Shown: positions 19,112 through 64,000, counted from the first letter of the stretch. The stretch: 64,000 bases of DNA from an uncultured delta proteobacterium (GCA_963823335.1 CAWGLD010000009.1:1-64000); one strand, 5' to 3'. Numbers and translations: made by a program. The notes: generated by a model from the sequence alone, not told the origin.

Positions 19112-19154
19112 GCATTGTTAATTAATAATTTCATGTATCGTCTATCGCAGATAA

Positions 19155-19323: not shown

Positions 19324-19325
19324 TA

Positions 19326-22695: not shown

Positions 22696-22795
22696 TCAGT
22701 GAACAGTAATCAGTAAAAAAAGTAATCAGTTATCGATAGTCATCAGTTACTGAACACTGATTACTGATCACTGAATACTGATAACTGATTACTCA
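22696..22795. repeat. degenerate heptamer (CAGTnnn) array with inverted counterpart; similar arrays fill most intergenic gaps of this operon
   Basis: TCAGTGAACAGTAATCAGTAA...ACTGATTACTGATCACTGAATACTGATAACTGA; also ~23793, 25676, 26592, 27200, 28250, 29340, 30030. Confidence 0.85.
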
Positions 22796-22810
22796 TAAGT
22801 TGGAAAAACA

Positions 22811-23788: not shown

Positions 23789-23972
23789 CCGTATTCAGTA
23801 AACAGTAATCAGTGACCAGTATCCAGTGGTCAGTAAACGGTGAGTTGAAAAGTTACAAAGTTAAAAAGTGGCAGGGTAGAAGCGGGAAAAGGTAGAAAAG
23901 CAAAACATAAAGGTTAAAGGGTTAAGAAATTTAAAAGTTACTGAGTCAAAAAGGTTGAAAAGGAGAAATAAA

Positions 23973-25667: not shown

Positions 25668-25800
25668 AGGGAAGAGGCAGTAGTCAGTATCCAGTGAACA
25701 GTAATCAGTGAGTGGAAAAGCTGAAGAGTAAAAGAGTTACAAAGTAGAAAGGTAAAAAAATGCACAACGGTTTGAGACAAAGGCAGAGAAAAGGAGCACC

Positions 25801-26100
25801 ATGAAGAAGATTGATGAAGAAAACAGATACTTTTTCGGCGGTAAGATCGAGATGGAAACCATAATGGGGTGGGGGTATTCCCGGTACATTGTCAGCCAAT
25901 TGGGACCAATGGGGGGCACCCTGATGGCGGTTGATCCAAATGCGCCAAAGGTGGACCGGTTTATCAGAATCGGTGGCGATCCCTACCTGATCCGTTACAA
26001 TAGCCGTCTGCCAGTTGTTGTATATGCGCCTGAGGGTGTTGAAGTGCGTTATCGGTTATGGCACGCCGAGCCGGAGGAAAAGGCGATGGAAAATGGCTGA
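25801..26100 (+). CDS. ecotin-family serine protease inhibitor, N-terminally truncated
   Basis: GWGYSRY, GTLMA, RYNSRLPVVVYAPEGVEVRYRLW; no signal peptide or N-terminal third. Confidence 0.78.
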   Translation: MKKIDEENRYFFGGKIEMETIMGWGYSRYIVSQLGPMGGTLMAVDPNAPKVDRFIRIGGDPYLIRYNSRLPVVVYAPEGVEVRYRLWHAEPEEKAMENG

Positions 26101-26587
26101 TCCGGCGAGTTTACAGAATCTTCATGATATAATAATGCCGTCACCGGTTCCCTGGTGGCCTCCGGCGCCGGGGTGGTATGCAATATTCGCAGGTAGCGCT
26201 GTTGTTGCGGCATGGTTCTGCTGGCGACAATTTAGGAGCTGGCGGGTAAACGCTTATCGCCGCGCGGCATTGGATGAACTTGCCCGGATAAAGGGCCTGG
26301 TTGATTCCGGTGATCGGGAACCGGCCATGAGAAAACTTCCGGAACTGATCAAGCGGACAGCAATGTCTGTGTGGCCCCGGGAAAAAGTGGCTGCGCTCAC
26401 AGGCAGCGGGTGGCTGCAGTTTTTAGATCAGGCTGCAAATACAGACGAATTCACCAAAGGATCTGGGCGGATCCTGTTGGATCTTTCTTATGCAGGGAAT
26501 CAGAAACTGAATGTGATGCCTGATGATCAGGTTTATTTGTTAATTCAGATCGTTGAAAAATGGATCAGGGAACACCGGGTTGGGTAA
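26093..26587 (+). CDS. DUF4381 family protein
   Basis: LHDII.P.PVPWWPPAPGWY, NAYRRAAL, LTGSGWLQFLD. Confidence 0.9.
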   Translation: MADPASLQNLHDIIMPSPVPWWPPAPGWYAIFAGSAVVAAWFCWRQFRSWRVNAYRRAALDELARIKGLVDSGDREPAMRKLPELIKRTAMSVWPREKVAALTGSGWLQFLDQAANTDEFTKGSGRILLDLSYAGNQKLNVMPDDQVYLLIQIVEKWIREHRVG

Positions 26588-26725
26588 GAAGTATTCAGTG
26601 ATCAGTAAGCAGTGAACAGTAAAAGATTGAAAAGTATAAAAGTTGAAGAGTTAAAAAGTGCAGTAATCAGTATGAAAGATAGACCGATAATTTGTCATTT
26701 ATAATCAGGAATTGCGGAGATAATA

Positions 26726-27199
26726 ATGAAAAAAGCAGGTATCGAATATAAAAGCATTCGAAAAAGCAGGAAAAATTTTCTGGTACCAGTGATCTGCTTA
26801 ATCTTCATGTGGCTGTCTGCAGCAGTTGTATATGGTGCAGCGAATGAGTCGCCGGAAGACGCAGCAGCAAAAAAATCACAAAAAAATGAAACGCCTGATT
26901 TCAATCGTCTGGTCGGGAGCTGGGTGCGTCCTGACGGAGGTTATGTTATTGAAATCAGTAAAATACATCCGGATGGCACTGCGGATGCGGCATATTTAAA
27001 TCCCCGGCCGATCAATGTCGCTAAAGCAAAGGTATCCGAAATTGATGGAATGCTCGGACTGTTTATTAAACTTGAAGACCAGGGATATCCGGGGAGCACT
27101 TATGCACTGAAGTATAATCCGGAGTATGACGCAATGGTTGGGGTTTATTTCCAGGCAGCCATTAAACAGTCGTATGATGTGATTTTTCAGAGAAAGTAA
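26726..27199 (+). CDS. hypothetical exported protein
   Basis: signal-like N-terminus; LVGSWVRPDGGY; co-oriented within the operon. Confidence 0.75.
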   Translation: MKKAGIEYKSIRKSRKNFLVPVICLIFMWLSAAVVYGAANESPEDAAAKKSQKNETPDFNRLVGSWVRPDGGYVIEISKIHPDGTADAAYLNPRPINVAKAKVSEIDGMLGLFIKLEDQGYPGSTYALKYNPEYDAMVGVYFQAAIKQSYDVIFQRK

Positions 27200-27268
27200 C
27201 AGCTTGAAGTTAACAGTAATCAGTTATCGGTAATCAGTAGTTACTGAACACTGAATACCTGGAAAAAT

Positions 27269-28282
27269 ATGATCGAATTCAATTACATATGGGCTTTTAT
27301 CCTTCTGCCCCTGCCGCTGGTTCTCAGGTGGTTCCTGCCGGAACATCGTGAGCCGAGGTCGGCCGTCGGGGTGCCGTTTATGGAGCGGTTGTCGGTTATT
27401 ACAGGCCGAAAGCCGGCCCCGGGTGCTGCGATTATTCAAGGGTCTTTCATGCAGATGGTGTTTTTAATTCTGGCGTGGGTCCTGGTTGTCACTGCAATGG
27501 CCCGACCCCAATGGATTGAAAGCCCGATAACAAAAGAAGTGCCGACCCGGGATTTACTTCTTGCCGTTGATCTTTCCGGTTCCATGGAAACCGAGGATTT
27601 TACGGACGCATCAGGCAAAACAGTGGATCGTCTGACGGCCGTTAAGCAGGTTTTGGACGAATTTCTGGCCCGGCGAAAAGGGGACCGGGTGGGGCTTATC
27701 TTTTTCGGGTCAGCCGCCTTTGTCCAGGCACCGTTTACCGAAGACCTGGAAGTCATCCGGACTTTGATGGATGAAGCGCAGGTGCGCATGGCCGGTCCCC
27801 AGACCATGATGGGGGATGCCATTGGTCTGGCGCTTCATGTTTTTGAAAACAGTGAAACACAGGACAGAGTGCTCATTGTGCTCACCGACGGAAACGATAC
27901 CGGCAGCCAGGTGCCGCCGCAAAAAGCATCTGAAATTGCAAGGGATAAAGACATCACCATTCATACGGTGGCCATTGGTGATCCAAAGTCCGTGGGCGAG
28001 GATAAACTGGATGCAGAATCATTAAAAGCCATGTCCCGGATTACCGGCGGCAGTTATTTTCACGGGATGAACCGGAAAGATCTCGAAGAAATCTATAACA
28101 AGCTCGATGCCCTTGAAACCCGGCAGGTTGAAACCATCAGCCACCGGCCGAAAACAGATCTTTTTTTCTGGCCGCTTTCTGTTTTTTTCGGATTGGGACT
28201 GGTGTTTCACGGGGCGGCGATCATTCGGAACAGGAAACTTATAGCAGGCAGTAATCAGTTTACAGTAACCAGTAATCAGTAG
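27269..28282 (+). CDS. VWA domain protein (BatA-like)
   Basis: DLSGSM MIDAS motif, GDRVGLIFF, LTDGND. Confidence 0.93.
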   Translation: MIEFNYIWAFILLPLPLVLRWFLPEHREPRSAVGVPFMERLSVITGRKPAPGAAIIQGSFMQMVFLILAWVLVVTAMARPQWIESPITKEVPTRDLLLAVDLSGSMETEDFTDASGKTVDRLTAVKQVLDEFLARRKGDRVGLIFFGSAAFVQAPFTEDLEVIRTLMDEAQVRMAGPQTMMGDAIGLALHVFENSETQDRVLIVLTDGNDTGSQVPPQKASEIARDKDITIHTVAIGDPKSVGEDKLDAESLKAMSRITGGSYFHGMNRKDLEEIYNKLDALETRQVETISHRPKTDLFFWPLSVFFGLGLVFHGAAIIRNRKLIAGSNQFTVTSNQ

Positions 28283-28376
28283 AAAAAAGTGAGCAGTTGT
28301 CGGTTGTAATTAGTTACTGACCACTGATTACTGATAACTGAACACTGACCAAACTCTCCAGGCAGGCAACGAACAG

Positions 28377-29336
28377 ATGAACGAGTTGATAATAAACTTC
28401 CACTTCCTCCGACCCTGGTGGCTGGCAGCAGCGTTGCCAGCAGGGTTTCTGCTGTGGCTGATTGCCGGGCAGTCGGATTCCAGACGGGCATGGAAAAATA
28501 TTATTTCCGGTCATCTGCTGAAGCATCTTCTGATCGGGGAGTCCGCACAAAGCCGGCTGCGGCCCTGGCATCTTTTGGGGGTGGTATGGCTGATTTCAAT
28601 TATCGCGCTTTCCGGTCCGGCCTGGCAGATTGAGCCGTCGCCGTTTGCGGAAGATCAGTCTGCCTTGTTTATTGTTTTAAAAGTTGCGCCTTCCATGAAG
28701 GCCGAGGATATTCAGCCGTCACGTTTAACTCGGGCGGTCCATAAAATCCGGGATCTCATGGCTTTACGTAAGGGAACATTAAATGGCCTGATTGCCTATT
28801 CAGGCAGCGCGCATTTGGTGATGCCCCTGACCCGGGATAATGACATCATTGAATCTTTTGCCGGTGAATTGTCACCGGAAATCATGCCGTCTGAGGGAGA
28901 CGCACTGGCAGAAGCGGTTTTGCTTGCAAATGATCAGTTAAAAAAATCCGGTTTGAGCGGTTCGGTGCTTCTGATAACTGATGCGGTCTCTGAAGATCAG
29001 CTCCAGGAACTGGCCCGCAATCAAAAGGAAAACACGTTTCCGGTTCATTTGCTGGCCATTGCGTCAGAAAATCCCAGCGGAATCGTTTCCGCTCCGGCCA
29101 TTGATAAAACTATGCTGGGAAAAGCCGCCCGGGCGCTCGACGGTTCACTGACAATCGTTACACCGGATGAACAGGATGTGGAAAATATTGCGTCCAAGGT
29201 TGAAAAAGATCTGACCACAATGATTTTGCCAGACAGCGGACAGCGCTGGAAAGATTCGGGTTTCTGGCTGGTGCCTTTCATCGCGTTTTTTACTTTGATC
29301 TGGTTCCGGCGAGGGTGGGTGGTGAGGTATGAGTGA
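28377..29336 (+). CDS. VWA domain protein (BatB-like)
   Basis: HFLRPWWL, SMKAEDIQPSRL, MPLTRD, LITD. Confidence 0.9.
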   Translation: MNELIINFHFLRPWWLAAALPAGFLLWLIAGQSDSRRAWKNIISGHLLKHLLIGESAQSRLRPWHLLGVVWLISIIALSGPAWQIEPSPFAEDQSALFIVLKVAPSMKAEDIQPSRLTRAVHKIRDLMALRKGTLNGLIAYSGSAHLVMPLTRDNDIIESFAGELSPEIMPSEGDALAEAVLLANDQLKKSGLSGSVLLITDAVSEDQLQELARNQKENTFPVHLLAIASENPSGIVSAPAIDKTMLGKAARALDGSLTIVTPDEQDVENIASKVEKDLTTMILPDSGQRWKDSGFWLVPFIAFFTLIWFRRGWVVRYE

Positions 29337-29442
29337 AAGGAAGTGTTCAGTAATCAGTGAACAGTAAAAGCATAGAAAAAATATATCGTTAATACTGATC
29401 ACTGGTTACTGAAGACAGATTACTAAAACAAACGGTATAGAA

Positions 29443-30045
29443 ATGAAATACGCAATCATAATGATATTGCTCATAATTGGAACCCCCGGCTGCTCCGCCG
29501 ACTATTGGTTCACCCCGGATCAGCAGGGGGACCGGCTGATGAAGTCTGAAAAGTTTGAAGACGCAGCCAGGGTTTATGTTGACCCCTTAAGGAAAGGGGT
29601 TGCGCTGTTTCGCAGCGGGGATTTCGAAGCGGCCGCTGCCGCGTTCGGCCGTCTGAACACCGCCGAAGCCCATTTTAATCGGGGAAACGCCCTGGTGATG
29701 CTTGGAAAGTATACGGATGCGGTTTCTGCCTATGACCGGGCGCTGGATTTACAAGAAAGTTGGAAAATGGCGGAGGACAACAGGGAAATTGCCCGTATAC
29801 GCGCTGAGAGAATGGAACTTGAGGGTGGTGACATGACCGGCGGTATGCTCGGTGCGGATGAAATCGTGTTTTCAGAAGGCGGAAAAAACAAATCCGGTGG
29901 AGAAGAAATCGTTGAGGCAGATGCCGGAGCGCCGCTTTCGGATGAACAGATAAGCTCCCTCTGGCTGCGGCGGGTGCAGACAAAACCCGCTGATTTTTTA
30001 AAAGCAAAGTTTTCGTATCAATTCAGTAAAAGAAGTGAACAGTAA
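29443..30045 (+). CDS. TPR protein (BatC-like)
   Basis: TPDQQG, FNRGNAL TPR, WLRRVQTKPADFL. Confidence 0.88.
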   Translation: MKYAIIMILLIIGTPGCSADYWFTPDQQGDRLMKSEKFEDAARVYVDPLRKGVALFRSGDFEAAAAAFGRLNTAEAHFNRGNALVMLGKYTDAVSAYDRALDLQESWKMAEDNREIARIRAERMELEGGDMTGGMLGADEIVFSEGGKNKSGGEEIVEADAGAPLSDEQISSLWLRRVQTKPADFLKAKFSYQFSKRSEQ

Positions 30046-30114
30046 CTGAAAACTGATTACTGAATACTGACTACTGATTACTTCGATTACTGATCACTGA
30101 AAAAAAGGTTCCGC

Positions 30115-35973: not shown

Positions 35974-36079
35974 TGGAATTAGGTGGCTATTGAAGGATGG
36001 GCGTTCAAAGAAAAGGCATAACCTTTCACTGATGCTGATGGCGTGTTGCCGCCGCACAGTTCCGACACCGTTGATATCT

Positions 36080-36159
36080 GGTACCTTTCCTGTAGATAGA
36101 TTTTGGGGAGGCGAGCGAGCCCGAAGGGTATAGCTCGCGGAGCCTCCGCAAAGCTATCT
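36080..36159. repeat. 80-bp palindromic (REP/MITE-like) insert
   Basis: AGATAG..TTTGGGGAGGC..GCGAGC-loop-GCTCGC..GCCTCCGCAAA..CTATCT; TATCT at both junctions. Confidence 0.6.
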
Positions 36160-36218
36160 CCAACAAAACGGTAGATATCAGACCCCTAAAATATTACCGA
36201 TGTGCGAAAATAATCACA
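36158..36218 (+). repeat. family A element, left half only, adjacent to the recombinase 3' end
   Basis: CTCCAACAAAACGGTAGATATCAGACCCCTAAAATATTACCGATGTGCGAAAATAATCACA, then diverges. Confidence 0.88.
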
Positions 36219-36223
36219 GTTTG

Positions 36224-36258
36224 AAGGGTGGTTCCGGGCAAAGGGAGCCACCCTTTTT
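36224..36258. terminator. hairpin downstream of the recombinase gene
   Basis: AAGGGTGGTTCC...GGAGCCACCCTTTTT. Confidence 0.55.
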
Positions 36259-36263
36259 CCCTT

Positions 36264-36749
36264 TTAGCTGTAGATGGTTTCAATCCATTTCAGCGCCTCG
36301 GTATCGCTGATCCTGCCCAAATATATCTGAGTGGTCGACAGGTTTGAATGCCGGAGAATGATCTTACTCACAATTTCAAGCGGCACTCCTGAACGGGAGG
36401 CAAATGTTGCAGCATGGCGTCGCAAATCATGAGGTCGCAGATGGATGCCAACCAACTTACCAGCTTTTGCCACAATCGAACGGGCAGTCTCATAACAGAT
36501 CGGAAATATACTTTCCTGTAATCCGATTTTCTGAGTTTCGACATATTCCCTAAGGCGATCAGCCACCTTTTGGGGAATAAATATCATTTCACACTCACGA
36601 CCGCTTTTCGGTTCCCTTAACAATATTTTCCTTTCAGAAATATCATTGGGTACGATTTTCAACACCTCACCTATTCGTATAGCACAACGAGCCATGAGTT
36701 CGAGCATCAAACGGTTCCTGGGATGAACTGTCCGAAAAACTATTGACAT
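36264..36749 (-). pseudogene. tyrosine recombinase, catalytic domain only (N-terminus missing)
   Basis: IRIGE (R), PKSG (K), HDLRR (HxxR), LRH, TTQIY (Y); no IntI-specific insertion; only 161 aa. Confidence 0.9.
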
Positions 36750-36872
36750 AACTGGTTGTTATGCTAGTCGGGATACTGACAAGATACACTAACTGTTATT
36801 CATTCTAAATAAAAGAAAACGGGAAGGCTTAAAAACCACCTCCCCGTTAAATACTAAAGGGCTAAAAAAGGG

Positions 36873-37136
36873 TTACTTGCTCTTCGCTGCCGGTTTCTTT
36901 GCCGCCGGTTTCTTCGCCGCCGGTTTCTTTGCTACCGGTTTCTTCGCCGCTGTTTTCTTTGCAGCCGGTTTCTTTGCAGCCGGTTTCTTTACTGCTGTTT
37001 TCTTCACTGCTGTTTTCTTCACTGCTGTTTTCTTTGCAGCCGGTTTCTTTGCTACCGGTTTCTTCGCTGCTGTTTTCTTTGCTGCCGGTTTCTTTGCTGC
37101 TGTTTTTTTTGCCGCCGGTTTTTTTGCTGCTGCCAT
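36873..37136 (-). CDS. histone H1-like Lys/Ala-rich DNA-binding protein
   Basis: almost entirely (A/V)KK(P/T)A pentapeptides; GGGAGGG RBS; varied codons. Confidence 0.82.
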
Positions 37137-37505
37137 GGAACCCTCCCTAAATGTTTAAATTGTTAGGATCATCACATAGCCCTTTAGCTTAGAAAATAAT
37201 ATTAGCATGAACAATGCATTTTGTATTAAAATTTAGATATGCTACTATATATAGTATGTCAAGCTTATTGATTGATGGATTTTTAAATTAATTAGCAAGA
37301 TAGATGCTGCTCCGCTTGGGAAAAATGAACATCACTATCAAACTGATGCTCCCCTTCTAATTAATATACCTAACAGCCTGAAGCTTTAAAAACTCATAAC
37401 TTGCTATGCACATTAACAACCTTGTGTTATCATAGAGTCCTAAAGAATATTGCTCTAACAGAATAATAATTAAAAAAATTGAAACTCAATAGAAAGGAGA
37501 AAGCT

Positions 37506-37775
37506 ATGAACAAAGGAGATTTAATCAACGAAGTTTCAAAAGTCCTAAAAACCAAAAAGGATGCTCAGGCAGCCGTGGACTGTGTTATTTCAAGCATTAC
37601 CAAGGCATTGGAGAATGGAGACTCTGTATCATTGATTGGATTCGGCACATTTAAAGTGGCTGATAGGAAGGCGCGTCAAGGCAGAAATCCCCAGACAGGG
37701 GAAGAAATATATATTGCAGCAAGTAAGGTGCCTAAGTTTGTTGCAGGAAAGGTATTGAAGGATGCTGTGAAATAG
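37506..37775 (+). CDS. hup: HU family DNA-binding protein
   Basis: [40 protein letters not shown]. Confidence 0.95.
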
Positions 37776-37802
37776 TTGTTCGTTTGTTGGTATGTTACAA
37801 GT

Positions 37803-37831
37803 GCAGGGTCAGCGATGGCCCTGCTTTTTTG
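37803..37831 (+). terminator. intrinsic terminator after HU
   Basis: GCAGGGTCA-GCGA-TGGCCCTGC-TTTTTT. Confidence 0.8.
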
Positions 37832-37849
37832 ATACTGTATTGCCGATGC

Positions 37850-38020
37850 CTCTAACAAAAACAAAGATATCATACCCCTGAAAAATCACCGGTGTGCAAA
37901 TATTATCGCAACCGGCGTAATCTTGTATTCATAGGGACTCCCGTGGTACGCTGGGCATAACCAGATTGTATCGGCAATAATTTGGTTGAGCTTGATAACT
38001 GGACATCTCTCCATGCATCA
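37850..38020 (+). repeat. family A element, copy 3
   Basis: full match including CACCGGTGTGCAAATATTATCGCA, TTGTAT-N18-TACGCT and CCAG...TTGATAACTGG...CTCCAT. Confidence 0.88.
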
Positions 38021-38250
38021 GTAATCAGCTGATATTTGGTTTTTAGAATTGATATCACATGCAACAATCTTGCAAATAACGAATCCCTTGACCCTTTCTC
38101 CCAAATCAGGTACTTATTTTATAGTCGCTTAAATCACACCTGACCTGATACTGATTTCCAAACTTGATCCTGAGCTGATCTCATTCTCGACCTGTCTGTA
38201 CATTTCCAAGACGTATCATCTTCTTCAACCCCCAACCAGAAGGTGATCTA

Positions 38251-41200
38251 ATGCCCACAGACCAAGATAAAACCATTCGCAAACTCAGAGCCATCCTTAG
38301 TGCAGATGTCAAAGGTTATTCCCTCCTAATGGCAAACGATGAAGCCTTCACGATAAAGACTCTCAAAGAGTATCGGAAGATCATGTCCGACTTGATCAAG
38401 CAGTATAGCGGTCGTGTTGTGGACTCTCCTGGCGATAATGTTCTGGCTGAATTTTCCAGTGTTGTTGATGCGGTGACATGTGCAACTGATGTACAGAAGG
38501 TTCTCAAGGTGAAGAATGAAGGGCTTCCTGATGATAAAAAGTTGGAATTTCGTATCGGAGTCAACATAGGTGATGTTGTTCAGGATGGAGATCGTATTTA
38601 TGGCAATGGCGTAAATGTCGCTGCCCGTATAGAAGGTCTTGCTGAACCTGGTGGAGTAAGTATTTCACGTAATGCCTATGACCACATCCGGGACAAGTTG
38701 GAGTTAGGCTATGAGTATCTTGGTGAACATAGTGTAAAAAACATTAAACATCCTGTCAGGGTGTACAAGATACTAATGGACCCAGAAGACGCCGGCAAAT
38801 TAATTGGTGATGTACCTAAACTCGTGGTCAAGAATTGGATCTGGGTGACCATTGTTTTGGCTGCGGTGGTTATTGCGGTAGTTGGTACGATGGTTTATCA
38901 GAACGTGACTGAGCCGGAATTTGAACCTGCAAAAATTGAAGAGATGGCATACGCACTACCAGATAAGCCCTCGATAGCTGTCTTGCCCTTTGACAATATG
39001 AGCGGCAACCCGGAACAGGAATATTTCGGTGACGGCATTACCGAAGATATCATCACCGCTCTTTCCAAAATCGATGACCTCTTTGTAATTGCACGCAACT
39101 CGACGTTTACCTATAAGGGCAAGCCGGTCAAGATTAAGCAGGTGGCAGAGGAACTGGGCGTACGCTATGTGCTCGAAGGAAGTGTCCGAAGATCGGAAGA
39201 TCGGATAAGAATTAACGCTCAGTTGATCGATGCGGTAGAGGGAAATCACCTATGGGCGGAACGCTACGATCGTAGTCTGAAAGACATCTTCACTTTGCAG
39301 GATGAGATCACTATGAAGATCGTTACCGGATTACGAATAGAGCTTACTGAGGGTGAACAGGCTCGCATGTTTGGTGCGCGGAGCACAAATCTTGATGTAC
39401 AGTTAAAAGTTATGGAGGGCCTTTCGCTTTGGCGAAAAGGCACCAAAGAAGGTCTAATAAGGTATGGCCAGATCGGAAAGGAAATCGTCGATATGGCGCC
39501 CGAAGCTCCGTTTGGTTACATCGCCTTGACTGTGTATAACTGGACCCTTGCAATGCTTGGTGAATCACCCGAGGAGTCCATTTCAAAGGCCTTCAAAAAT
39601 GCGAAAAAGGCTCTCTCCCTGGATGAATCTTTCGCCTTGCCTCATGCCATATTAGGCAATGTCTACATTTTGATGCGAAAGTATGAAGAGGCAATTGCCG
39701 CGGGGGAACGAGCTGTAGAACTTGAACCAAATGGCGCTGATGTGCATGTGCTTTTGGGCAGCACGCTCGGTTACGCCGGAAGGCTGGACGAAGCCATTGA
39801 GCATCTTAACCAAGGGATCCGTCTCAACCCTTTTCCCCCTTCGTGGTACTTCATTCAATTAGGCCGTTGCTTTAGGCAGAAAGGAATGTACGAGGAAGCG
39901 CTGACAGCATATGAGAAAGCTGTTCAACGTAGTCCAGAAGATATCCATAACCATATATCATTAGCTGCTGTTTATGCTATATTAGACCGAAACGACGAGG
40001 CTGAGGCGGCGGCTAAAAAGGTCTTAGAGATAAATCCCAATTTTTATATTAAAATAGCTACAAAAGCCTGGCCATATAAAAATCCAGCCGATTTGAAACT
40101 TTTTATCGATGCCTTGCGTAAAGCTGGCCTTCCTTACGAACCATCAATCCCACTATCCGATAAACCCTCCATCGCAGTCCTGCCGTTTGACAATCTCAGC
40201 GATGACCCAGAGCAGGAGTATTTCAGTGATGGGATCTCTGTGGAAATTATCAACGGTCTCGTTAGGTGGCCTTCGATAGTAATCATACCTAAAAGTTCAA
40301 GTTTCATTTATAAGGGCAAAACCGTGGACGTGCAGGAAGTGGGACGAGAGATGGGTGTGAGGTACGTCCTGGAAGGAAGCGTCCGTCGTGAGGGGAACAG
40401 GGTTCGTGTCACCGTCCAACTCGTCGACGTTACCACCCTAAAGCACCTCTTCTCCGAACGTTACGATCGTGAAATGAAGGATATCTTTGCTATCCAAGAT
40501 GAAATCACTATGGGTGTCTTAACTGCCATGCGAGTATCGCTTTCCGGCACAGGAGTTCCATCACATCGGGGCATGCCTACAAAAAGCATTGAGGCCTACC
40601 TGAAATTATTACAGGCAGAGGATATATTTCTATCCATGAATCGAGATGCCCAAGCCCGGGCAAGGCAATTGGCTGAAGACGCCATTGCCCTGGATTCTGA
40701 ATATTCACGGGCACACGCCTTGATGGCGGCCACTATTGGAAATGAGGTTCTACTTGGCGTTTATAACAACTCTCAAGAAGCCTTACAACGGGCCATAGAA
40801 CTTGCCGATAAGGCAATCCAGTTAGATGATTCCGAAAACATGGCGCATAGAGTTCGTGGGTTCTTGGCTTTGCAAAACAAGGACTACGATAAAGCCATTG
40901 CCGGAGCCAGGCGAGCTGTCGAACTGGCACCTAATTCCGCCATTGCCCAGGTTATCCTTGGTTATTTTCTTTACAGCGCCGGTAGAACAGAGGAAGCCAT
41001 TCCGATTCTTGAAAATGCCATGGCGCTCAACCCAATTCCTTCTCCTCGCGCACTTAGTCACTTGGGAATAGCCTATCGAAAGGCACGGCGATATGAAGAA
41101 GCGGTTGAGGTTTGCAAAAAACTGATTCAAATCCAGCCGAATTACATTTACCCTCACCTTACACTTGCCGCCACGTTTGTGGAGATTGATAAAATGGATG

Positions 41201-41343
41201 AAGCCCATACGGAGATCAAAGAAGTCTTGAGAATCAACCCAAATTATTCTGTTAAACTTATCCCAAGGTCTTTCCCTTGGAAGGAGCAGAATGAGTTGGA
41301 TCGATTGGCCGATTCCTTGAGCAAGGCAGGTCTCCCCGACTGA
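38251..41343 (+). CDS. class III nucleotidyl cyclase + TM + two TolB-N/TPR modules
   Basis: paralogue of 16016 with a nearly identical 5' leader and start. Confidence 0.93.
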   Translation: MPTDQDKTIRKLRAILSADVKGYSLLMANDEAFTIKTLKEYRKIMSDLIKQYSGRVVDSPGDNVLAEFSSVVDAVTCATDVQKVLKVKNEGLPDDKKLEFRIGVNIGDVVQDGDRIYGNGVNVAARIEGLAEPGGVSISRNAYDHIRDKLELGYEYLGEHSVKNIKHPVRVYKILMDPEDAGKLIGDVPKLVVKNWIWVTIVLAAVVIAVVGTMVYQNVTEPEFEPAKIEEMAYALPDKPSIAVLPFDNMSGNPEQEYFGDGITEDIITALSKIDDLFVIARNSTFTYKGKPVKIKQVAEELGVRYVLEGSVRRSEDRIRINAQLIDAVEGNHLWAERYDRSLKDIFTLQDEITMKIVTGLRIELTEGEQARMFGARSTNLDVQLKVMEGLSLWRKGTKEGLIRYGQIGKEIVDMAPEAPFGYIALTVYNWTLAMLGESPEESISKAFKNAKKALSLDESFALPHAILGNVYILMRKYEEAIAAGERAVELEPNGADVHVLLGSTLGYAGRLDEAIEHLNQGIRLNPFPPSWYFIQLGRCFRQKGMYEEALTAYEKAVQRSPEDIHNHISLAAVYAILDRNDEAEAAAKKVLEINPNFYIKIATKAWPYKNPADLKLFIDALRKAGLPYEPSIPLSDKPSIAVLPFDNLSDDPEQEYFSDGISVEIINGLVRWPSIVIIPKSSSFIYKGKTVDVQEVGREMGVRYVLEGSVRREGNRVRVTVQLVDVTTLKHLFSERYDREMKDIFAIQDEITMGVLTAMRVSLSGTGVPSHRGMPTKSIEAYLKLLQAEDIFLSMNRDAQARARQLAEDAIALDSEYSRAHALMAATIGNEVLLGVYNNSQEALQRAIELADKAIQLDDSENMAHRVRGFLALQNKDYDKAIAGARRAVELAPNSAIAQVILGYFLYSAGRTEEAIPILENAMALNPIPSPRALSHLGIAYRKARRYEEAVEVCKKLIQIQPNYIYPHLTLAATFVEIDKMDEAHTEIKEVLRINPNYSVKLIPRSFPWKEQNELDRLADSLSKAGLPD

Positions 41344-41371
41344 CCTTTCCACCATGCTTGAACGGTGATAC

Positions 41372-41545
41372 CTCCTACGATTCGGTAGATATCAGGTGCC
41401 TTAAAAACCACCGATGTGCGAAAATAATCGCAATGGGCTAAATCTTGCAGAATTAGGAGTTCACGTGGTACCGTGGGGATGACCAGATGGCATCAGTAAT
41501 ATTGTCTGTAATTCCAGCAACAAAGCTGATCTCCATCAATCACAG
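41372..41545 (+). repeat. family A element, copy 4
   Basis: CGGTAGATATCAG...CACCGATGTGCGAAAATAATCGCA...CGTGGTACCGTGGGGATGACCAGATGG...CTCCAT. Confidence 0.85.
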
Positions 41546-41685
41546 GTCTGGATTTCAGCTATTTCAGTTTAAAATATCCCATTTCTTGACCCATCCTGCA
41601 AAATCATGTATCAATTTTATAAATCCCTTTATTCACTTCATTTTCATATAGAATCATCTTCAAACCCTAAACCGAAGGTGATCTT

Positions 41686-43458
41686 ATGCCCAACGAACAA
41701 AAAGTCACCAGAAAACTTAGAGCCATTCTCAGTGCCGATGTAAAGGGATACTCCCTCCTAATGGCAGACGATGAGGTTCATACCATCCAGACGCTGAAGG
41801 CGTACCGCAGCCTGATGTCTGATCTTATCCAACAGCATTCCGGTCGTGTTGTAGATAATCCCGGTGACAATCTTCTGGCAGAGTTCTCCAGTGCCGTAGA
41901 TGCTGTAGATTGTGCTGTGCAGGTCCAGAACAGGCTGAAGAAAGAGAATGCAAAGTTTGTCGAGGGCAAGAAACTTCAGTTCCGTATAGGCGTAAACATC
42001 GGTGATGTTGTTCAGGATGGTAATCGGATCTATGGAAGTGGTGTAAATGTTGCTGCTCGAATTGAAGGGTTGGCTGATCCGGGTGGTATATGCATATCAC
42101 GGAACACCTATGATCATGTGAAGGGCAAACTTAATATTGGCTTTGAGTACCTTGGTGAGCATGAGGTTAAAAATATTGGGGAACCTGTACGAGTATATAG
42201 GGTACTGTTGGATACAGATTCACATAAGCCACTGGTAGAAGAACTGCTTGAACTACCGGATAAACCCTCAATTGCCGTTCTTCCATTCGATAATATGAGT
42301 GATGATCCAGAGCAGGAATATTTCTCTGATGGAATAACAGAAGATATCATAACAGCTTTGTCACGCTCTTCATGGATGTTCGTGATAGCACGAAACTCCA
42401 GCTTCGCCTACAGAGGAAAGGCGGTTGATGTAAAAAAAATCAGCAAAGAGCTTGGGGTTCATTATGTTTTGGAAGGAAGCGTAAGAAAGGCAGGAAAAAA
42501 AATACGTGTAACAGCACAACTGATTGATGGGATTAGTGGAAAACATGTATGGGCTGAGAAATATGATGGCGATCTTCAGGATATTTTCAACCTACAGGAT
42601 CAGATAACACAAAAAGTTGTGGCTTCTACCTATACACAAGTTGCCTTGAGTATTGGGGAGGTTGAAACGAAGGTTAGAAGGGAAAATATCCGCACTTGGG
42701 AATTAATCGCTAAAGCTTGGAAATATGGATATGATTTTACAGAAGATAGTCTTGATTATGCAGAGAAACTATTGAGATCAGCGTTAGATTTAGACTCAAA
42801 TAGTGGAATGGCCAATTGTCTCTTAGGAAGTATGTTAATTCATAAGGTTATGATGGGCTATGTCCCTGGGAAAGTTCGTCAGATCATAGATGAATCTTAC
42901 CAATTTGCACATAAAGCAATATCAATTGATGAACAACTTGAGTTCGCTCATTGGGTTATCGCCATTATTCATTTGATGTCAGGAAAACATGATCTTGCAC
43001 TCGCTGAGTTTCAGCGTACAATAGAGATAAACCCTAATTTTTCATTAGGTTACGGAGCCCTTGGCTCTGCTCTCGCCTTTTGTGGAGAAACAGAAGAAGC
43101 GATTAATAATAACGAAATTGCAATAAGAATAAATCCCAGAGATTCGAGCATCTTTTATCGCTATTCTGATATAGCTTTATCCCATTTTTTAGCAGGAAGA
43201 TACACAGACGCAATTGAATGGTCAAAAAAAAGCATACAGAGAAAATCGTATTGGCAGATGGGCCACGCAATTCTTATATCCTCCCTCGGTCATCTTGATC
43301 GTCCAGAAGAGGCTAAAAGGGCGATAGAAGACTTTCGAGAATCGTTTTTCGGGAAAAGAATTTCAACTTTTAAAAACTTACCGTTTAAGTATTCCGAAGA
43401 TTCGATTAAGTTTCAAGAGGGGCTTCGAAAAGCAGGATTATTTGAACAGATACCATGA
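41686..43458 (+). CDS. class III nucleotidyl cyclase + single TolB-N/TPR module (no TM)
   Basis: same cyclase motifs; KPSIAVLPFDN; TPRs. Confidence 0.93.
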   Translation: MPNEQKVTRKLRAILSADVKGYSLLMADDEVHTIQTLKAYRSLMSDLIQQHSGRVVDNPGDNLLAEFSSAVDAVDCAVQVQNRLKKENAKFVEGKKLQFRIGVNIGDVVQDGNRIYGSGVNVAARIEGLADPGGICISRNTYDHVKGKLNIGFEYLGEHEVKNIGEPVRVYRVLLDTDSHKPLVEELLELPDKPSIAVLPFDNMSDDPEQEYFSDGITEDIITALSRSSWMFVIARNSSFAYRGKAVDVKKISKELGVHYVLEGSVRKAGKKIRVTAQLIDGISGKHVWAEKYDGDLQDIFNLQDQITQKVVASTYTQVALSIGEVETKVRRENIRTWELIAKAWKYGYDFTEDSLDYAEKLLRSALDLDSNSGMANCLLGSMLIHKVMMGYVPGKVRQIIDESYQFAHKAISIDEQLEFAHWVIAIIHLMSGKHDLALAEFQRTIEINPNFSLGYGALGSALAFCGETEEAINNNEIAIRINPRDSSIFYRYSDIALSHFLAGRYTDAIEWSKKSIQRKSYWQMGHAILISSLGHLDRPEEAKRAIEDFRESFFGKRISTFKNLPFKYSEDSIKFQEGLRKAGLFEQIP

Positions 43459-43509
43459 TAAGAATGCAAAATACACCACGTTTCTTTAGGCCTCTTATTG
43501 ATGGCATAA

Positions 43510-43682
43510 CTCCAACAAAAACAAGGTTATCAGACCCCTAAAATTTCACCGGTGTGCGATTATAATCACAACAGGCTGAATCTTGCATTGATAAGAATTT
43601 CCGTGGTGCTTTGGTGATGCCCAGATGGTATCGCTGATATTTACATCAAACTTGATAACTGGACTTATCTCCATTAATCACA
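43510..43682 (+). repeat. family A element, copy 5
   Basis: full-length match to the other copies. Confidence 0.88.
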
Positions 43683-43757
43683 AGCTGGAAATTCGAGGTT
43701 TATTAGCGTCTCCATTTTTGCATTATTTTCAATAACTTCAAGGTATGGAGGTTCGTT

Positions 43758-45203
43758 GTGCAACGCAGAAACCTATTCTATCTAATATCCGCTGTAGTCC
43801 TTTTGATAATATGGACCCAAACGATTGTGTGTGCTTTGGCTCTTGAAAAAAAACCAACGGCATTCATTCATGCAAACCTGATACCCATGACAACCGAAAA
43901 AGTACTACCAGACCAGACTGTGATCGTTGAAGGTAAGCAGATTGCAGTCATAGGTCCTTCCAGCCAAACGGAGATACCTTCCAATGCTATTGTGATCAAT
44001 TGCCAAAACGCGTTCATTATGCCTGGTTTATCTGACATGCATATGCATCTCCGATACGATTGGAGTAGGAATGTTTGGCCGGTGTCCCCCTTGAAGCTTT
44101 ATCTTGCCAATGGCGTCACGACAATTCGTTGCTTGGGACCAAGAGGAAAAACTGGCCGGTACGGTCTTACATGGCGGAGGGAGATCGATGCTGAGCATCT
44201 TGTTGGTCCAAATATATTGACATGTGGCCCTCAACTTCGCGGTCATTTCAAAAAGAATCCAGAACAAATTGTTATTGAGCAAAAATACCAAAGATTCGAT
44301 TTCATTAAAATCTATTCCTTCGTAACAAAGGAAGAATATCATACTATCATGTCAACAGCCAAAAGGCTTGATTTTTATACCGTTGGCCACATCCCATTTC
44401 AGGTGGGTCTGGAAGGTATTTTGGCAGAAGGCATGAATGAAATCGCTCATGTCGAAGAGCTTTTGTATGAATTTTATAATCTCGATCGCAGGCGCTACTT
44501 TGAAAAAGAAGGGGAGTGGATGGCTTATGCCAACCATAGCGGTTTCTATCAATTTGAGAACTATTTCAATCTCGATCCAAAGGATAGAGATCAAAAATTA
44601 GATGATATGGTTGCACCGGTGGTTAACAAGCTGAAAGATAAGGATATTCCAGTCTGCACCACACTGGTATTGGATGATATTCTTGTACAAAAGCTATTCG
44701 AACCGGATCTTTTTTTGAAGAAACCAGAAATTCGATTTTTGCCCGAGTGGTACAGGAAGCAATTTCTATCCGGAAAGGAGAAGCACCAACAACAGTTCAA
44801 GGGTGGTGAAGTGTTTGCTCAATTTAAATACGGGTTGGATAAAAAGCTTTTAACAAGTTTAAAAAAAGCAGGTGTCCAGTTACTGTTGTCTACAGACTCC
44901 GGGTCAGGAGCAATGGGTGTCGTACCGGGGTTTTCCATTCATGATGAACTCAGCATTCTGGTTGACAACGGCTTTACACCTTATGAGGCGCTTGCCGCTG
45001 GAACCGTCGTGGCTTCTAAAATTGTGAAAAGAATGAATGGACGAGATGATTTTGGAACCATCGTGCCTGGAAAAAGAGCAGATCTTATTTTATTGCATCA
45101 AAATCCACTGGAGGATGTTGCCAATGCCCGCAAGATAATTGGCGTCATGGCTGCCGGTCGATGGTATGATCAAAAGGCCATCGCTGAGATGTTGGATCAT
45201 TGA
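43758..45203 (+). CDS. amidohydrolase family protein (exported)
   Basis: MPGLSDMHMH, GVTTIR, STDSG, GKRADLILL..NPLED. Confidence 0.92.
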   Translation: MQRRNLFYLISAVVLLIIWTQTIVCALALEKKPTAFIHANLIPMTTEKVLPDQTVIVEGKQIAVIGPSSQTEIPSNAIVINCQNAFIMPGLSDMHMHLRYDWSRNVWPVSPLKLYLANGVTTIRCLGPRGKTGRYGLTWRREIDAEHLVGPNILTCGPQLRGHFKKNPEQIVIEQKYQRFDFIKIYSFVTKEEYHTIMSTAKRLDFYTVGHIPFQVGLEGILAEGMNEIAHVEELLYEFYNLDRRRYFEKEGEWMAYANHSGFYQFENYFNLDPKDRDQKLDDMVAPVVNKLKDKDIPVCTTLVLDDILVQKLFEPDLFLKKPEIRFLPEWYRKQFLSGKEKHQQQFKGGEVFAQFKYGLDKKLLTSLKKAGVQLLLSTDSGSGAMGVVPGFSIHDELSILVDNGFTPYEALAAGTVVASKIVKRMNGRDDFGTIVPGKRADLILLHQNPLEDVANARKIIGVMAAGRWYDQKAIAEMLDH

Positions 45204-45350
45204 ATCCATTAATCAATCAATTCACAGATATTATCACACATCAAATGGCTTTGAGATACTGAAAAACAGTTGTGCCATATATAAGGGTTCTTACGAGCAC
45301 AATAAGCTGAAGATTTCTTGCATAAACCTATTGCCCTGCACCGTTGATTT

Positions 45351-45520
45351 CTCCAACAAAACGGTAGATATCAGACCCCTGAAATTTTACCGGTGTGCGA
45401 AAATAATCACAACAGGCCAAATCTTGCATTCATAGCATCTGCCATGGTACCGTTGGGATGACCAAATGGTATCTGACAAATTCCCAAATTGTCGGATAGT
45501 TGGACTTGTCTCCATGTATC
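45351..45520 (+). repeat. family A element, copy 6
   Basis: full-length; preceded by CACCGTTGAT; hairpin TATCTGACAA/TTGTCGGATA. Confidence 0.9.
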
Positions 45521-45645
45521 GGTAATGTAGATTGTTGGCTATTTCTGTAAGATAGTGTTGAAAATTTTTTTCAGTTGAATTATAGGCTTATCGTTCCCTT
45601 CTGTCTCATTTCCGTTACCCCAAAACTAACAGTTAAGGAGAAAAC

Positions 45646-46320
45646 ATGAATCTGAATCTCGCAAAGCATTTCCTTGGTATTATCATGTTTCTTACTATTG
45701 TATCTGCATGTATTCTCTCTACCTCTTTTGCATATGCCCAAGGCGCTCCCTCATTCAGTATTGGTGCGTTTGGCGGATTTACTTCAGACATGTCCTCAGA
45801 GGCTGTGGAAGATTATGATGATACTGAGTGGGAGGCCGGTACAGCCTATGGCGGCAGTGTTATGTACCGTATGGCAAACGGTTTTGTTTTGGAGCTTATT
45901 GTTAAACAGTTCGAAATGGATGCAGAGGAGAATGGCGATGAAATTGGAACCTTGAAAGTGACACCCATACTCTTGATGATCGGCTACCAAAGCATGCCGA
46001 AAAATCAAAGCGGATTTGCTTTTCACGCCTCGATTGGGGGTGGGTATGCATCGTCAGATTTTGATAAAGGTGACGATATCAAAGACCTGGAAAGAGCTAA
46101 TGGCGTTAAAATCGACATCGACAATGACGATGCCTTCATGTTCGAGATGGGCGCCGGAGTCGATTACTTTTTCACAAGAAACATAGCACTGACGTTGGAC
46201 GGTCGGCTTGTAGCCGGGGATATCGATTCGGAATGGGATTTTAGTAATGGAGATTCGGAAGATTTTACGTTTCAGACGGGTCATTTCGAAGGCTTGGTGG
46301 GGCTTAGGCTCTGGTTTTAA
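45646..46320 (+). CDS. outer-membrane beta-barrel protein (OmpW/OmpA-TM-like)
   Basis: signal peptide, amphipathic strands, GAGVDYFF, C-terminal Phe. Confidence 0.85.
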   Translation: MNLNLAKHFLGIIMFLTIVSACILSTSFAYAQGAPSFSIGAFGGFTSDMSSEAVEDYDDTEWEAGTAYGGSVMYRMANGFVLELIVKQFEMDAEENGDEIGTLKVTPILLMIGYQSMPKNQSGFAFHASIGGGYASSDFDKGDDIKDLERANGVKIDIDNDDAFMFEMGAGVDYFFTRNIALTLDGRLVAGDIDSEWDFSNGDSEDFTFQTGHFEGLVGLRLWF

Positions 46321-46802
46321 TGATAAGACCATAACCTAATAGCCCTATTTGTAACGAAGGTTACATTCATTCATCGATCCATCAATGAATCATTATTCCT
46401 ATTTGTATAAGTTGCATAGATTAAAGTGGCAGAGCTACCTTAGCTCTGCCACTTCTTTATATATCACATATGGTTCTGAAGGTTGTAAAGTTGCACTAAC
46501 TCCTACACATCGGTATTTAACGATATTTACAGGTTTTACAGCAAATCACCACCATAGCCATTTTTAGACAACCTGTATTTTTATGTTATCATCAGGGAGA
46601 ATCGTTTCGGCGGTTTTCCCTTTTTTGCAAATTTGTAAGAAAAATGGTATCTGTAACGACATATTGGGCATTTCGATGTCAGATATGCTCAGAAAACACA
46701 GGTTTTTTGGGCGGGGTGATAACCTGAACATCTCTCCATCTATCTTTACCCCACAGGGGCACAAATATCTGAAAAACATGATCCCGTAACTTGGAAAAGA
46801 AC

Positions 46803-47264
46803 ATGCAGCTTAAGCCAATAGGAAATATTCAGACGCCTTATAAAGCAAAGGAAGATTGTCCGATTCAACCAATTTACGCTTCTAATGCTGAAGGTAAAAT
46901 AGAGATCTTCGAGCAATATGCTCCTGGCCTTAAGGATATAGAGGCTTTTTCACATCTCCACATCATATATTTATTCCATCGAGCAGGAGAGGTTCAACTG
47001 ATACGCCCTACATTTTTAGATGATGAACCTCATGGAATATATGCATCAAGGCACCCATGCCGACCAAATTCTATAGGCATGTCGATTGTTCAACTTAAAA
47101 AGAGAGTTGGGAACACACTAATTGTCAAAGGTGTTGACGTTCTTGATGGCACGCCACTTTTGGACATAAAACCATACATCCCAAAATTTGACATTATAGA
47201 ATCTGCCTCCAACGGTTGGGTTGATGGCACTCAATGGCGCCCTAAACCAAGAAATCGCGAGTAG
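46803..47264 (+). CDS. tsaA: TrmO/TsaA-family tRNA methyltransferase-like protein
   Basis: LKPIG.IQTPY, GIYASRHPCRPNSIG, DGTPLLDIKPY. Confidence 0.9.
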   Translation: MQLKPIGNIQTPYKAKEDCPIQPIYASNAEGKIEIFEQYAPGLKDIEAFSHLHIIYLFHRAGEVQLIRPTFLDDEPHGIYASRHPCRPNSIGMSIVQLKKRVGNTLIVKGVDVLDGTPLLDIKPYIPKFDIIESASNGWVDGTQWRPKPRNRE

Positions 47265-47266
47265 GA

Positions 47267-47418
47267 ACCCCCTAAAATTTTACCGGTGTGCGAAAATAAT
47301 CACAATCGACCGATTCTTGCATTAACGGTGGTCCCCATGGTACCGTGGGCATGACCAGATGGTATCGGCAATAATTTTGTTGAGTTTGATAACTGGACAT
47401 TGTCTCCATGTATCACAG
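47267..47418 (+). repeat. family A element, copy 7 (5'-trimmed)
   Basis: CCCCTAAAATTTTACCGGTGTGCGAAAATAATCACA...TTGCAT-N18-TACCGT...TTGATAACTGGACATTGTCTCCATGTATC. Confidence 0.88.
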
Positions 47419-47520
47419 ATCGACCAATCCGACCGCCTGCCTGTAAATCTCAATGTATCAGACCTTTGGGGATAAATAGAGAGAGATTATCGTCCATGAT
47501 TAATCATCCGAGCCAAACGC

Positions 47521-57558: not shown

Positions 57559-57577
57559 CTTGACCCGTTGTCAAAAT

Positions 57578-57680
57578 TATACCGCTTGTCATAATAATGT
57601 TCCGAAAATAGGATGGCGGCATAAGGGGTTGTAGCAGAAAAAAGGTCCTCAATCGGAACGTTTTTCTGACAACCCCTATA
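57578..57680. mobile_element. 103-bp MITE-like element, copy 2
   Basis: near-identical to 7915-8017. Confidence 0.8.
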
Positions 57681-62897: not shown

Positions 62898-63115
62898 AGG
62901 GTCCAGGGTTGAAGGGGGATACAAGGGTTCGAGGGTGGCTGACAGCTAAAAGCGGACAGCAGCAGCACAGCATACAAGGGTTTAAGGGAAATAGGGTTCA
63001 TTGAGTTTGTTGCGTTTCTTGAGTTCATTGGGTTGATGAAACGGAAACGCGTTGAAAGCTCTATTCCGATGGCCATCAGCAACACAATAAACCCAAAGAA
63101 CTCAATGAACCTCTT
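62898..63115. repeat. low-complexity octamer/nonamer repeat block; related blocks at 63858-64000 and inverted at ~58790-58830
   Basis: GGGGGATACAAGGGTTCGAGGGTGGCTGA.AGCTAAAA.CGGACAGCAGCA shared. Confidence 0.75.
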
Positions 63116-63857: not shown

Positions 63858-64000
63858 GGTTGGAGGATTGGAGGGTTCAAGGGTTGGAGGGGGATACAGG
63901 GGTTCGAGGGTGGCTGAAAGCTAAAAACGGACAGCAGCATCCCAGCTTCCAAGTATCCTGGCGTCCCAGCATGAAAGGGTTCAAGGGTTCGAGGGTGGCT

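Follow-up and report, generated by a model that had tools for sequence, protein, structure and literature searches.

A modular intergenic repeat with a candidate promoter in cassette-like gene arrays of an uncultured Desulfobacterales lineage

Introduction

What kind of element recurs between the genes of a 64,000-nucleotide stretch of DNA (CAWGLD010000009.1:1-64000, here called the window) from an uncultured delta proteobacterium (GCA_963823335.1)? The question was raised by positions 45424 to 45515, for which an initial annotation had proposed a fixed-spacing promoter followed by a covarying hairpin of ~65 nt, with selection acting on the structure of a multicopy small RNA or leader, or of an attC-like folded single-stranded DNA substrate. 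The genome that holds the window (4.37 Mb, 93.9% complete) belongs to an uncultured Desulfobacterales lineage. It is referred to as G000 and its relatives by other G numbers; C denotes a contig, and L followed by a number denotes a locus.

Co-oriented unrelated genes between related repeats are a feature of integron arrays, sedentary chromosomal integrons, and CALINs, which are clusters of attC sites without an integrase; the cassettes of classical integrons are promoterless. Putative mobile promoters (PMPs) are highly similar upstream sequences found before non-paralogous genes, with a criterion of at least 80% identity over at least 50 nt upstream of non-paralogous genes within one genome (Nijveen, Matus-Garcia, and van Passel 2012, PMC3575422). 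In the literature on mobile promoters and integron/attC cassettes, represented mostly by titles and abstract openings, no description of the repeat was found.

Results and Discussion

Anatomy of the repeat

The stretch in question is the middle and right part of a ~172-nt modular intergenic repeat with left (L), middle (M), and right (R) modules. The repeat families of the window included seven copies of a 171-nt unit, eight of its left 62 nt, and six of its right 63 nt, and partial matches placed the module borders at model positions ~1 to 63 (L), ~64 to 107 (M), and ~108 to 171 (R). At 45.4 kb, where the nhmmer match spans 45344 to 45530 on the plus strand, L occupies 45350 to 45411 (repeat family D5, nhmmer, and alignments), starts with TCTCCAAC, and contains the highly conserved core TTACCGGTGTGCGAAAATAATCACA. 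M (45412 to 45455) holds the candidate promoter P1, which consists of the −35 hexamer TTGCAT (45424 to 45429), an 18-nt spacer ending in TGG (45430 to 45447, with TG at 45445 to 45446), and the −10 hexamer TACCGT (45448 to 45453); the predicted start lies near 45455 to 45460. R (45456 to 45520; repeat family D6, alignment, and folds) runs from conserved ATGACCARATGGTATC on its 5′ side through a variable block to conserved GATAACTGGAC/GATAGTTGGAC-TTRTCTCCATSTATC.

Within R of the 45.4-kb copy, CCAA (45462 to 45465) lies opposite TTGG (45500 to 45503) as an outer stem, and TATCTGACAA (45470 to 45479) lies opposite TTGTCGGATA (45489 to 45498) as a 10-bp inner stem with one T.G pair. The inner stem is part of the minimum-free-energy fold, and the hairpin as a whole (45462 to 45503, plus strand) is kept in a subfamily of R designated TATCT. 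The promoter letters, the CCAA/TTGG pair, and the inner-stem letters of the initial annotation were all recovered at their positions in this copy. The hairpin length needs correction, as the pairing spans 42 nt (45462 to 45503) and ~65 nt is the length of the whole R module.

Further full copies, all on the plus strand, were located by nhmmer at 11192 to 11376, 19148 to 19331, 37843 to 38029, 41365 to 41552, and 43505 to 43689, together with a copy lacking the first ~25 nt of L at 47244 to 47423. An R-only copy (15724 to 15789, plus strand, model positions 116 to 181) lies upstream of a cyclase-TPR gene, and an L-only copy (36153 to 36218, plus strand) heads a sub-array at 36 to 47 kb and is followed by a terminator-like hairpin (36223 to 36256) and a recombinase gene fragment. 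The gene downstream of the 45.4-kb copy encodes a 224-aa outer-membrane beta-barrel protein (45646 to 46320, plus strand; Pfam OMP_b-brl, E = 7e-09) and starts 116 nt after the end of the nhmmer match and 126 nt after R. A distant longer relative of the repeat, E2 (~245 nt, 46500 to 46745, plus strand), has a CTCCTAC start, a terminator hairpin at 46594 to 46621, and an R-like end, ...GATAACCTGAACATCTCTCCATCTATC.

Placement and distribution

A profile built from the window copies gave 87 nhmmer matches in the genome, 57 of which cover at least 150 model positions. All 57 near-full copies are intergenic, and crude ORF calls give the repeat the orientation of the downstream gene in 51 and that of the upstream gene in 52 of them. 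The median gap between the upstream gene and the repeat is 54 nt, and that between R and the downstream gene is 167 nt, the distance from R to the next start codon ranging from 17 to 316 nt between the 10th and 90th percentiles. Same-orientation arrays occur on C7 (199 to 236 kb, 19 copies), C1 (86 to 117 kb), and C4 (145 to 181 and 538 to 547 kb), as well as in the window. The element is not simply placed after a stop signal, since a canonical terminator was found just upstream of only 7 of 83 copies.

The repeat was present in 11 of the 14 other genomes searched from the same family and in the single genome searched from one other family, and in none of the 25 genomes searched from the remaining 25 families of the order. 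Exact 25-nt matches came from metagenome-assembled genome (MAG) records of uncultured Desulfobacterales or deltaproteobacteria and from one 2.6-kb contig labeled otherwise. No match was obtained among viral contigs, searched with an exact 25-nt degenerate pattern, or among plasmids, searched with blastn.

In marine-sediment and salt-marsh metagenomes, the summed contig depth over the L core (45366 to 45426) was 2369 and 3808, and the E2 core (46586 to 46646) reached 1029, compared with ~7 to 12 over unique flanks. This jump in depth indicates that L-core and E2 repeats are very abundant in those sediment and salt-marsh communities.

A promoter-like motif in the middle module

The conservation of M was evaluated in an alignment of 96 distinct near-full copies (101 before duplicate removal), 57 from the genome of the window and the rest from relatives. 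TTGNNN-N18-TANNNT was found at the expected place in 83 of the 96 copies, 80 of which also carry the TG. Two of the 13 failing copies have a 1-nt change in spacer length (by eye), and most of the others fail by substitution. The TTG of the −35 element and the T, A, and last T of the −10 element, each conserved at 0.9 or above, are among the best-kept columns, and the mid-spacer (0.4 to 0.7) is the least conserved part of M. The initial observation that the length of the spacer is constant and its letters variable was thus borne out, as was the recurrence of the motif in the window at 11.3, 19.2, 37.9, 45.4, and 47.3 kb. The 41.4-kb copy also carries the motif, as TTGCAG, and the 43.5-kb copy, which has TGCTTT in place of the −10 hexamer, lacks the −10 A. 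Because the copies are homologous, the recurrence of the motif is largely a matter of common descent, and since all columns of a recently spread repeat are conserved, conservation alone is no proof of function.

Alternative middles share the geometry of M. In a second version of the repeat, V2 (four copies by a strict pattern and two more by eye), L is followed by a T-tailed hairpin, TTGACA-N18-TAGACT/TAGATT, eight nucleotides, and then CCAGATGG. The distance from the start of the −35 element to R (CCAGATGG) is 38 nt, a register identical to that of the common form, V1, and yet the V2 middle can hardly be aligned with the common middle. It matches the sigma-70 consensus at 10 of 12 positions. 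A version that bears a recombinase gene has TTGACA-N18-TATTCT-N7 before R, facing R and one base closer to it.

P1 itself matches the sigma-70 consensus at 6 of 12 positions, plus the TG, when a consensus like that of Escherichia coli is assumed for the host, and it was not listed by a consensus scan that required at least 9 of 12. The scan did list an overlapping candidate, P2, with TGGGCA-18-AATAAT at 37952 to 37981 and 47346 to 47375; in the same register, two genome copies have TTGACA-17-TAAAAT and a third has TTGACA-17-TAATTT. A start from P2 would fall inside the variable block, so the hairpin would be left out of the RNA. Metatranscriptome contigs from a single RNA run, which cannot reveal start, end, or strand, cover 45373 to 45410 and 45613 to 45824 within 45000 to 46800. 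Of the earlier suggestions, that of a promoter within each module survives as plausible: the conserved motif and the in-register promoter that V2 rebuilds speak for it, and the 6-of-12 match and the competing P2 speak against it.

The motif with its fixed spacing is real, and a promoter is the best-supported functional reading of it. The most likely content of M is a weak promoter of the sigma-70 type, with an extended −10 element (TTGCAT-N18-TGgTACCGT). The anatomy, copy number, placement, orientation, and conservation pattern of the repeat are observed, as are its alternative middles and the absence of a family-wide structure; promoter activity, the start site, and any role of the hairpin are inferred. 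That a promoter-bearing L-M-R repeat, with its promoter firing rightwards, would explain the stretch is our favored proposal, to which we give slightly less than an even chance. The repeat separates single genes, unrelated but alike in orientation, within long arrays of accessory genes. If P1 fires rightwards, the leader of the following gene would open with the ~65 nt of R. In the TATCT subtype, the stem-loop at 45470 to 45498 would then stand right at the start of the transcript, a position that suggests an mRNA-stabilizing or regulatory role. Stem-loops at the 5′ terminus, such as that of the ompA leader, stabilize bacterial mRNAs. The TATCT-subtype hairpin resembles them in that it would begin a few nucleotides after the predicted start, but the start is a prediction here, and most copies of the repeat have no stable hairpin.

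The wide spacing between R and the start codon (median, 167 nt) counts against the promoter reading. Nor does that reading account for the L core, the conservation of which exceeds that of the promoter.

The best-conserved block of the repeat is located in L (45387 to 45411 and the equivalent columns), not in the promoter. It consists of ACCGGT and then TGTG-N10-CACA (TGTGCGAAAATAATCACA) and resembles a dimeric protein-binding site. The arrays contain several adenylate/guanylate cyclase genes and a gene for a cNMP-binding transporter, which raises the idea that the L block may respond to a cyclic-nucleotide-responsive regulator. The consensus scan also lists a minus-strand promoter candidate in L (TTGTGA-17-TAAAAT; 45412 to 45384 and 47305 to 47277), the −10 letters of which vary in about one-third of the aligned copies (by eye). 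For the TGGTACCGTGGG block, sigma-54 and ECF promoters were considered and discarded, as the GG-to-GC spacing is 10, not 12 (by eye).

The repeat as a possible recombination junction

It is possible, although somewhat unlikely, that the repeat serves above all as the junction at which an integron-like cassette system recombines, the promoter being added or incidental. Site-specific recombination within the repeat would then insert, excise, and exchange array genes, most likely in the last ~35 nt of R, where GATAA-CTGGAC-TTATC forms an inverted repeat around a 6-bp spacer. The agent would be a tyrosine recombinase, perhaps the XerA-like enzyme whose gene lies within some copies of the repeat.

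The composition of the arrays fits such a system. As in integrons and CALINs, long arrays consist of co-oriented, unrelated single genes with a related repeat between each, and these single-gene cassettes make up arrays that differ between close relatives. In a Pfam scan of 54 plus-strand ORFs from the C7 and C1 arrays, with 12 minus-strand ORFs and the 35 ORFs of C4 set aside, 36 matched one of more than 30 families, including GNATs, hydrolases, and transporters, and 18 matched no family. Units shared between the genome of the window and its relatives terminate at repeat edges. The last ~25 nt of R together with the outer-membrane protein gene recur in G005:C2 at 95 to 97% identity, where the remainder of the repeat differs, and a unit in G007 (98%) runs from 19 nt before the end of R through a DnaJ gene to 8 nt into the next L. 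G004 shares a TrmO-like gene alone (92%), a Ni-SOD gene together with L-M of the repeat that follows (95%), and an SDR gene plus the downstream repeat (92%). A unit duplicated within C7 is bounded by the ends of two successive R modules. Furthermore, 10.35 kb of the window (36148 to 46499), opening with L and the recombinase gene, is absent between sequences that are contiguous in G007:C20.

These borders can also be read differently, since many of the junctions are merely the border between repeat and unique DNA. Junctions between differing repeats were mapped to model columns 8, 12, 26, ~63, ~118, 143, 144, 158, and ~166. They are concentrated at both ends of the repeat, most often in columns 138 to 171, but they are not limited to a single point as they are in integrons; such scatter is expected from homologous recombination, and homologous exchange between repeats that are 75 to 90% identical could account for it.

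Neither an integron integrase nor an attC fold was found. The best match to IntI (TIGR02249) in the genome scored 88.5 bits against a cutoff of 265, and the top matches were XerC/D-like genes on C3 and C5. An attC-type fold was absent from both strands, whether 81 whole elements were analyzed with RNAalifold or the 45.4-kb copy was folded as DNA (z = −1.05 for the plus strand and −0.47 for the minus strand), and the proposal of an attC-like folded substrate thus failed both the fold and the integrase test. The left end reads CTCCAAC or CTCCTAC in most copies, and CTCCAAC resembles the attC inverse core RYYYAAC, but its first base is not R. At the right end, the core GTTRRRY is present, as GTTGGAC, only in the smaller R subtype, which has GATAGTTGGAC; the majority has AACTGGAC. 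The repeat differs from integron sites in conserving sequence rather than structure, with no R″/L″-L′/R′ fold and no IntI, and in being ~172 nt long and seemingly promoter bearing, whereas classical cassettes have no promoter.

Another likeness to integrons is the divergent tyrosine recombinase gene with an outward-facing promoter that heads some arrays. The full gene (G000:C1:163905-164738), antisense between L and R, encodes a 253-aa tyrosine recombinase that is only XerA-like (NF040815, 94.7 bits versus a cutoff of 220). The window has a 5′-truncated copy (36264 to 36749, minus strand; 161 aa; Pfam Phage_integrase, E = 6e-18) that adjoins the L-only module and is 93% identical to the full copy. 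The layout L-terminator-recombinase(antisense)-promoter-R, which recalls intI-Pc-attI, was found in G000:C1, in the window (truncated), in G001:C18, and in G002:C127, and further repeats follow the recombinase in the first three. In both cases with a visible upstream side, the recombinase-bearing repeat is the first of its array. Five of eight matches to tyrosine recombinases other than XerC/D lie inside an array or no more than 5 kb from one. However, no repeat flanks the homologues at 55 to 63% identity, a single event may have given rise to the four flanked copies, and four incomplete MAGs (G005, G012, G013, and G014) with 5 to 19 scored repeats each have no close recombinase (E ≤ 1e-30). 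With unflanked homologues and several repeat-rich genomes lacking a close copy, the link between recombinase and element is suggestive only.

The full recombinase locus (L098, G000:C1:163901-164738) has a ribosome-binding site and an ATG followed, ~20 codons on, by a frame break at a run of nine A residues, and the long ORF resumes in the frame expected from one A fewer. The nine A residues and the two-frame layout were present in all five homologues inspected (L098, L100, L101, L102, and L107), which are 55 to 97% identical and come from different assemblies; the exact conservation of nine A residues points to programmed slippage rather than decay or sequencing error. The window copy ends before the A9 site.

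Combining these elements, one could envision a new kind of integron-like gene capture that operates without IntI or attC folds, at junctions that are ~172-nt sequence-conserved elements each with a promoter, and by means of the XerA-like recombinase. We consider this doubtful. Recombination would occur close to GATAA-CTGGAC-TTATC, where R ends, and at CTCCAAC, where L begins, and expression of the embedded recombinase would itself depend on slippage at the conserved A9 run.

Several other elements were noted in the window. A second repeat family comprises a GC-rich hairpin element, X (36072 to 36147), and E2; the two are contiguous in G007:C20, are separated in the window by the 10.35-kb array, and both recur in G001, G004, G005, and G007. 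A group II intron (19388 to 19545; Rfam RF02012, 81 bits) with a reverse-transcriptase ORF, extending to ~21508, begins 57 nt past the repeat at 19.2 kb. The same flanking sequence, which includes small hairpins, stands downstream of three other repeat copies (G000:C1:96186, C1:147872, and L051) and suggests that the end of R moves together with the intron or its target. A 15-nt tandem array (36851 to 37165) contains an ORF (36873 to 37136, minus strand) for an 87-aa repeat protein with the appearance of a histone H1/AlgP-like tail. It is adjoined by an HU-family gene (37479 to 37775), and HU genes are also located beside recombinase homologues in G007:C16 and within the C1 array. Arrays of 7-nt CAGTNAN-type words (repeat families D8, D11, and D15) occupy the spaces between genes from 22716 to 30077. 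There are also two two-copy direct repeats, one of 104 nt (98% identity, 49.7 kb apart; 7914 to 8017 and 57577 to 57680) and one of 80 nt (88% identity, 975 nt apart; 62899 to 62978 and 63874 to 63953).

Comparison with mobile promoters and selfish elements

By identity and placement, the repeat falls within the definition of PMPs: 15 of 39 other scored genome copies are 80 to 88% identical to the 45.4-kb copy over more than 100 nt, and the downstream genes are unrelated. Like PMPs and Correia, ERIC, and REPIN elements, it is a highly similar noncoding sequence upstream of many non-paralogous genes, is multicopy, orientation dependent, and common to related genomes, and has promoter-like hexamers (PMC3575422). 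In contrast to this group of elements, it has neither terminal inverted repeats nor a REP-type hairpin. It also departs from them in having three exchangeable modules, in being packed one copy per gene in arrays rather than scattered, and in that one version bears a tyrosine recombinase gene, not a DDE or RAYT gene.

An alternative is that the repeat is a selfish, MITE-like or conversion-homogenized element without a function in cis, its features being accidents of the founder copy, which was perhaps the flanks of the recombinase gene. V2 does resemble the recombinase-bearing version minus the gene, with similar terminator hairpins and TTGACA promoters. The mosaic combination of L, M, and R variants, folding energies no different from those of shuffled sequences, and the depth of the L core (2369 and 3808 versus ~7 to 12 on the flanks) would also suit such an origin. 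We nonetheless judge it improbable. The ends of the repeat do not pair, and so the terminal inverted repeats of a MITE are lacking, and neither a target duplication nor an empty site was found. Moreover, the orientation bias is near-absolute relative to both neighbors, the spacer keeps its length and not its letters across species, and discrete R subtypes are common to several genomes. For two solitary copies (G000:C1:1737056 and C5:9853), the relatives yielded no filled/empty pair because synteny is lost on one side; the gene upstream of C1:1737056 is conserved in five of five relatives, and nothing past the repeat is syntenic.

The hairpin and the possibility of a structured RNA

The initial annotation pointed to a structured RNA, in which case the fold of R would be selected across the family, as a multicopy small RNA or a cis-regulatory leader. 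On the evidence of folding, this is very unlikely. The 65-nt R module at 45.4 kb folds as RNA at −16.8 kcal/mol (z = −1.29), only modestly better than shuffles, 23 of 200 of which were as good. For the 54-nt R core of 95 copies, compared with 100 dinucleotide shuffles each, the mean z was −0.18 and the median −0.15, and 14% of copies fell below −1.5. The plus strand folds slightly better than the minus strand (mean, −8.3 versus −6.8 kcal/mol in 95 copies), T.G pairs would suit RNA or a top-strand fold, and some window copies beat their shuffles, the best at 37.9 kb (z = −2.18) and 41.4 kb (z = −2.55). However, z ranged from −2.55 to +0.56 among eight window copies folded on the plus strand, and those that fold well do so with different helices in different registers. 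RNAalifold returned an open chain without consensus structure for R of 91 to 95 copies on both strands, and whole elements (81 copies) gave −1.57 (plus) and −0.59 (minus) kcal/mol with no long-range pairs.

A 14-pair model of the annotated hairpin was paired in 71% of cells across 95 copies, compared with 66.4 ± 0.6% in column shuffles, none of 500 reaching the observed value, and with 28 to 42% for slid partners. The pairing came mostly from conserved columns, and the three inner pairs (125-141, 126-140, and 127-139) are intact in only 34, 37, and 30 of the 95 copies, respectively. The replacement of CCAG/CTGG by CCAA/TTGG, offered earlier as covariation, did not withstand the larger sample: of 95 copies, only 5 have A-T at this pair, 18 have G.T, and in 37 the two positions do not pair. 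The mutual-information signal was confined to the variable block and linked all of its columns, paired or not, which indicates a haplotype effect, not pairing.

The difference lies between subtypes of R, which are discrete and common to several genomes. In the TATCT subtype (22 of 96 copies, including that at 45.4 kb), 89% of cells are paired, and in one copy (L055) both partners have changed at two positions of the stem. The TATCG majority (67 of 96 copies) has 67% of cells paired; there, the three inner pairs hold in 12, 23, and 9 of 67 copies, and only a marginal helix (CCAG/CTGG, TATC/GATA) is possible. The strong stem is a trait of one R subtype, not a family constraint. The hairpin is genuine at 45.4 kb and kept in the TATCT subtype, and its inner pairs are mostly broken in the majority. 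The broader claim of family-wide selection on structure is not supported by the 91 to 95 copies analyzed, which fold no better than shuffled sequences, share no consensus structure, and only very rarely show changes on both sides of a pair. A multicopy small RNA is further disfavored, as no terminator was found 3′ of the hairpin and no Rfam family matched it. At gathering thresholds, Rfam 15 returned only the group II intron, and an E-value search of 45250 to 45700 gave only a chance-level snoRNA match (E = 2.8).

Least credible of all is a 42-aa minus-strand protein encoded by R and M, or a relic of one, and this coding reading was rejected: the frame (METSP...IIFAHR, 45515 to 45387) is intact in three window copies, is exactly 42 codons long in 19 and at least 42 in 26 of 57 genome copies, and rarely suffers indels, but it is stopped earlier in 31 copies, shows no codon periodicity (entropy of 0.68, 0.64, and 0.76 at codon positions 1, 2, and 3), has no Shine-Dalgarno sequence before its ATG and no Pfam family, and in a set of 5.8 billion proteins is represented beyond its own length only by a spurious 217-aa read-through of another copy.

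Implications

Overall, the element is best described as a junction repeat of cassette-like arrays that is specific to the family and probably bears a promoter. Its family specificity, together with its abundance in sediment and salt marsh, makes it a practical marker for these bacteria and a source of breaks in the assembly of their MAGs. If recombination at the repeat is what built the arrays, cassette arrays could be assembled by a recombinase and a type of site unlike IntI and attC, which would widen the search space for gene-capture systems that integron finders miss. If the promoter reading is correct, dozens of unrelated accessory genes in this lineage would be under one portable, modular control region, which would provide a clean natural case of promoter propagation with subtype-specific leaders that are open to testing.
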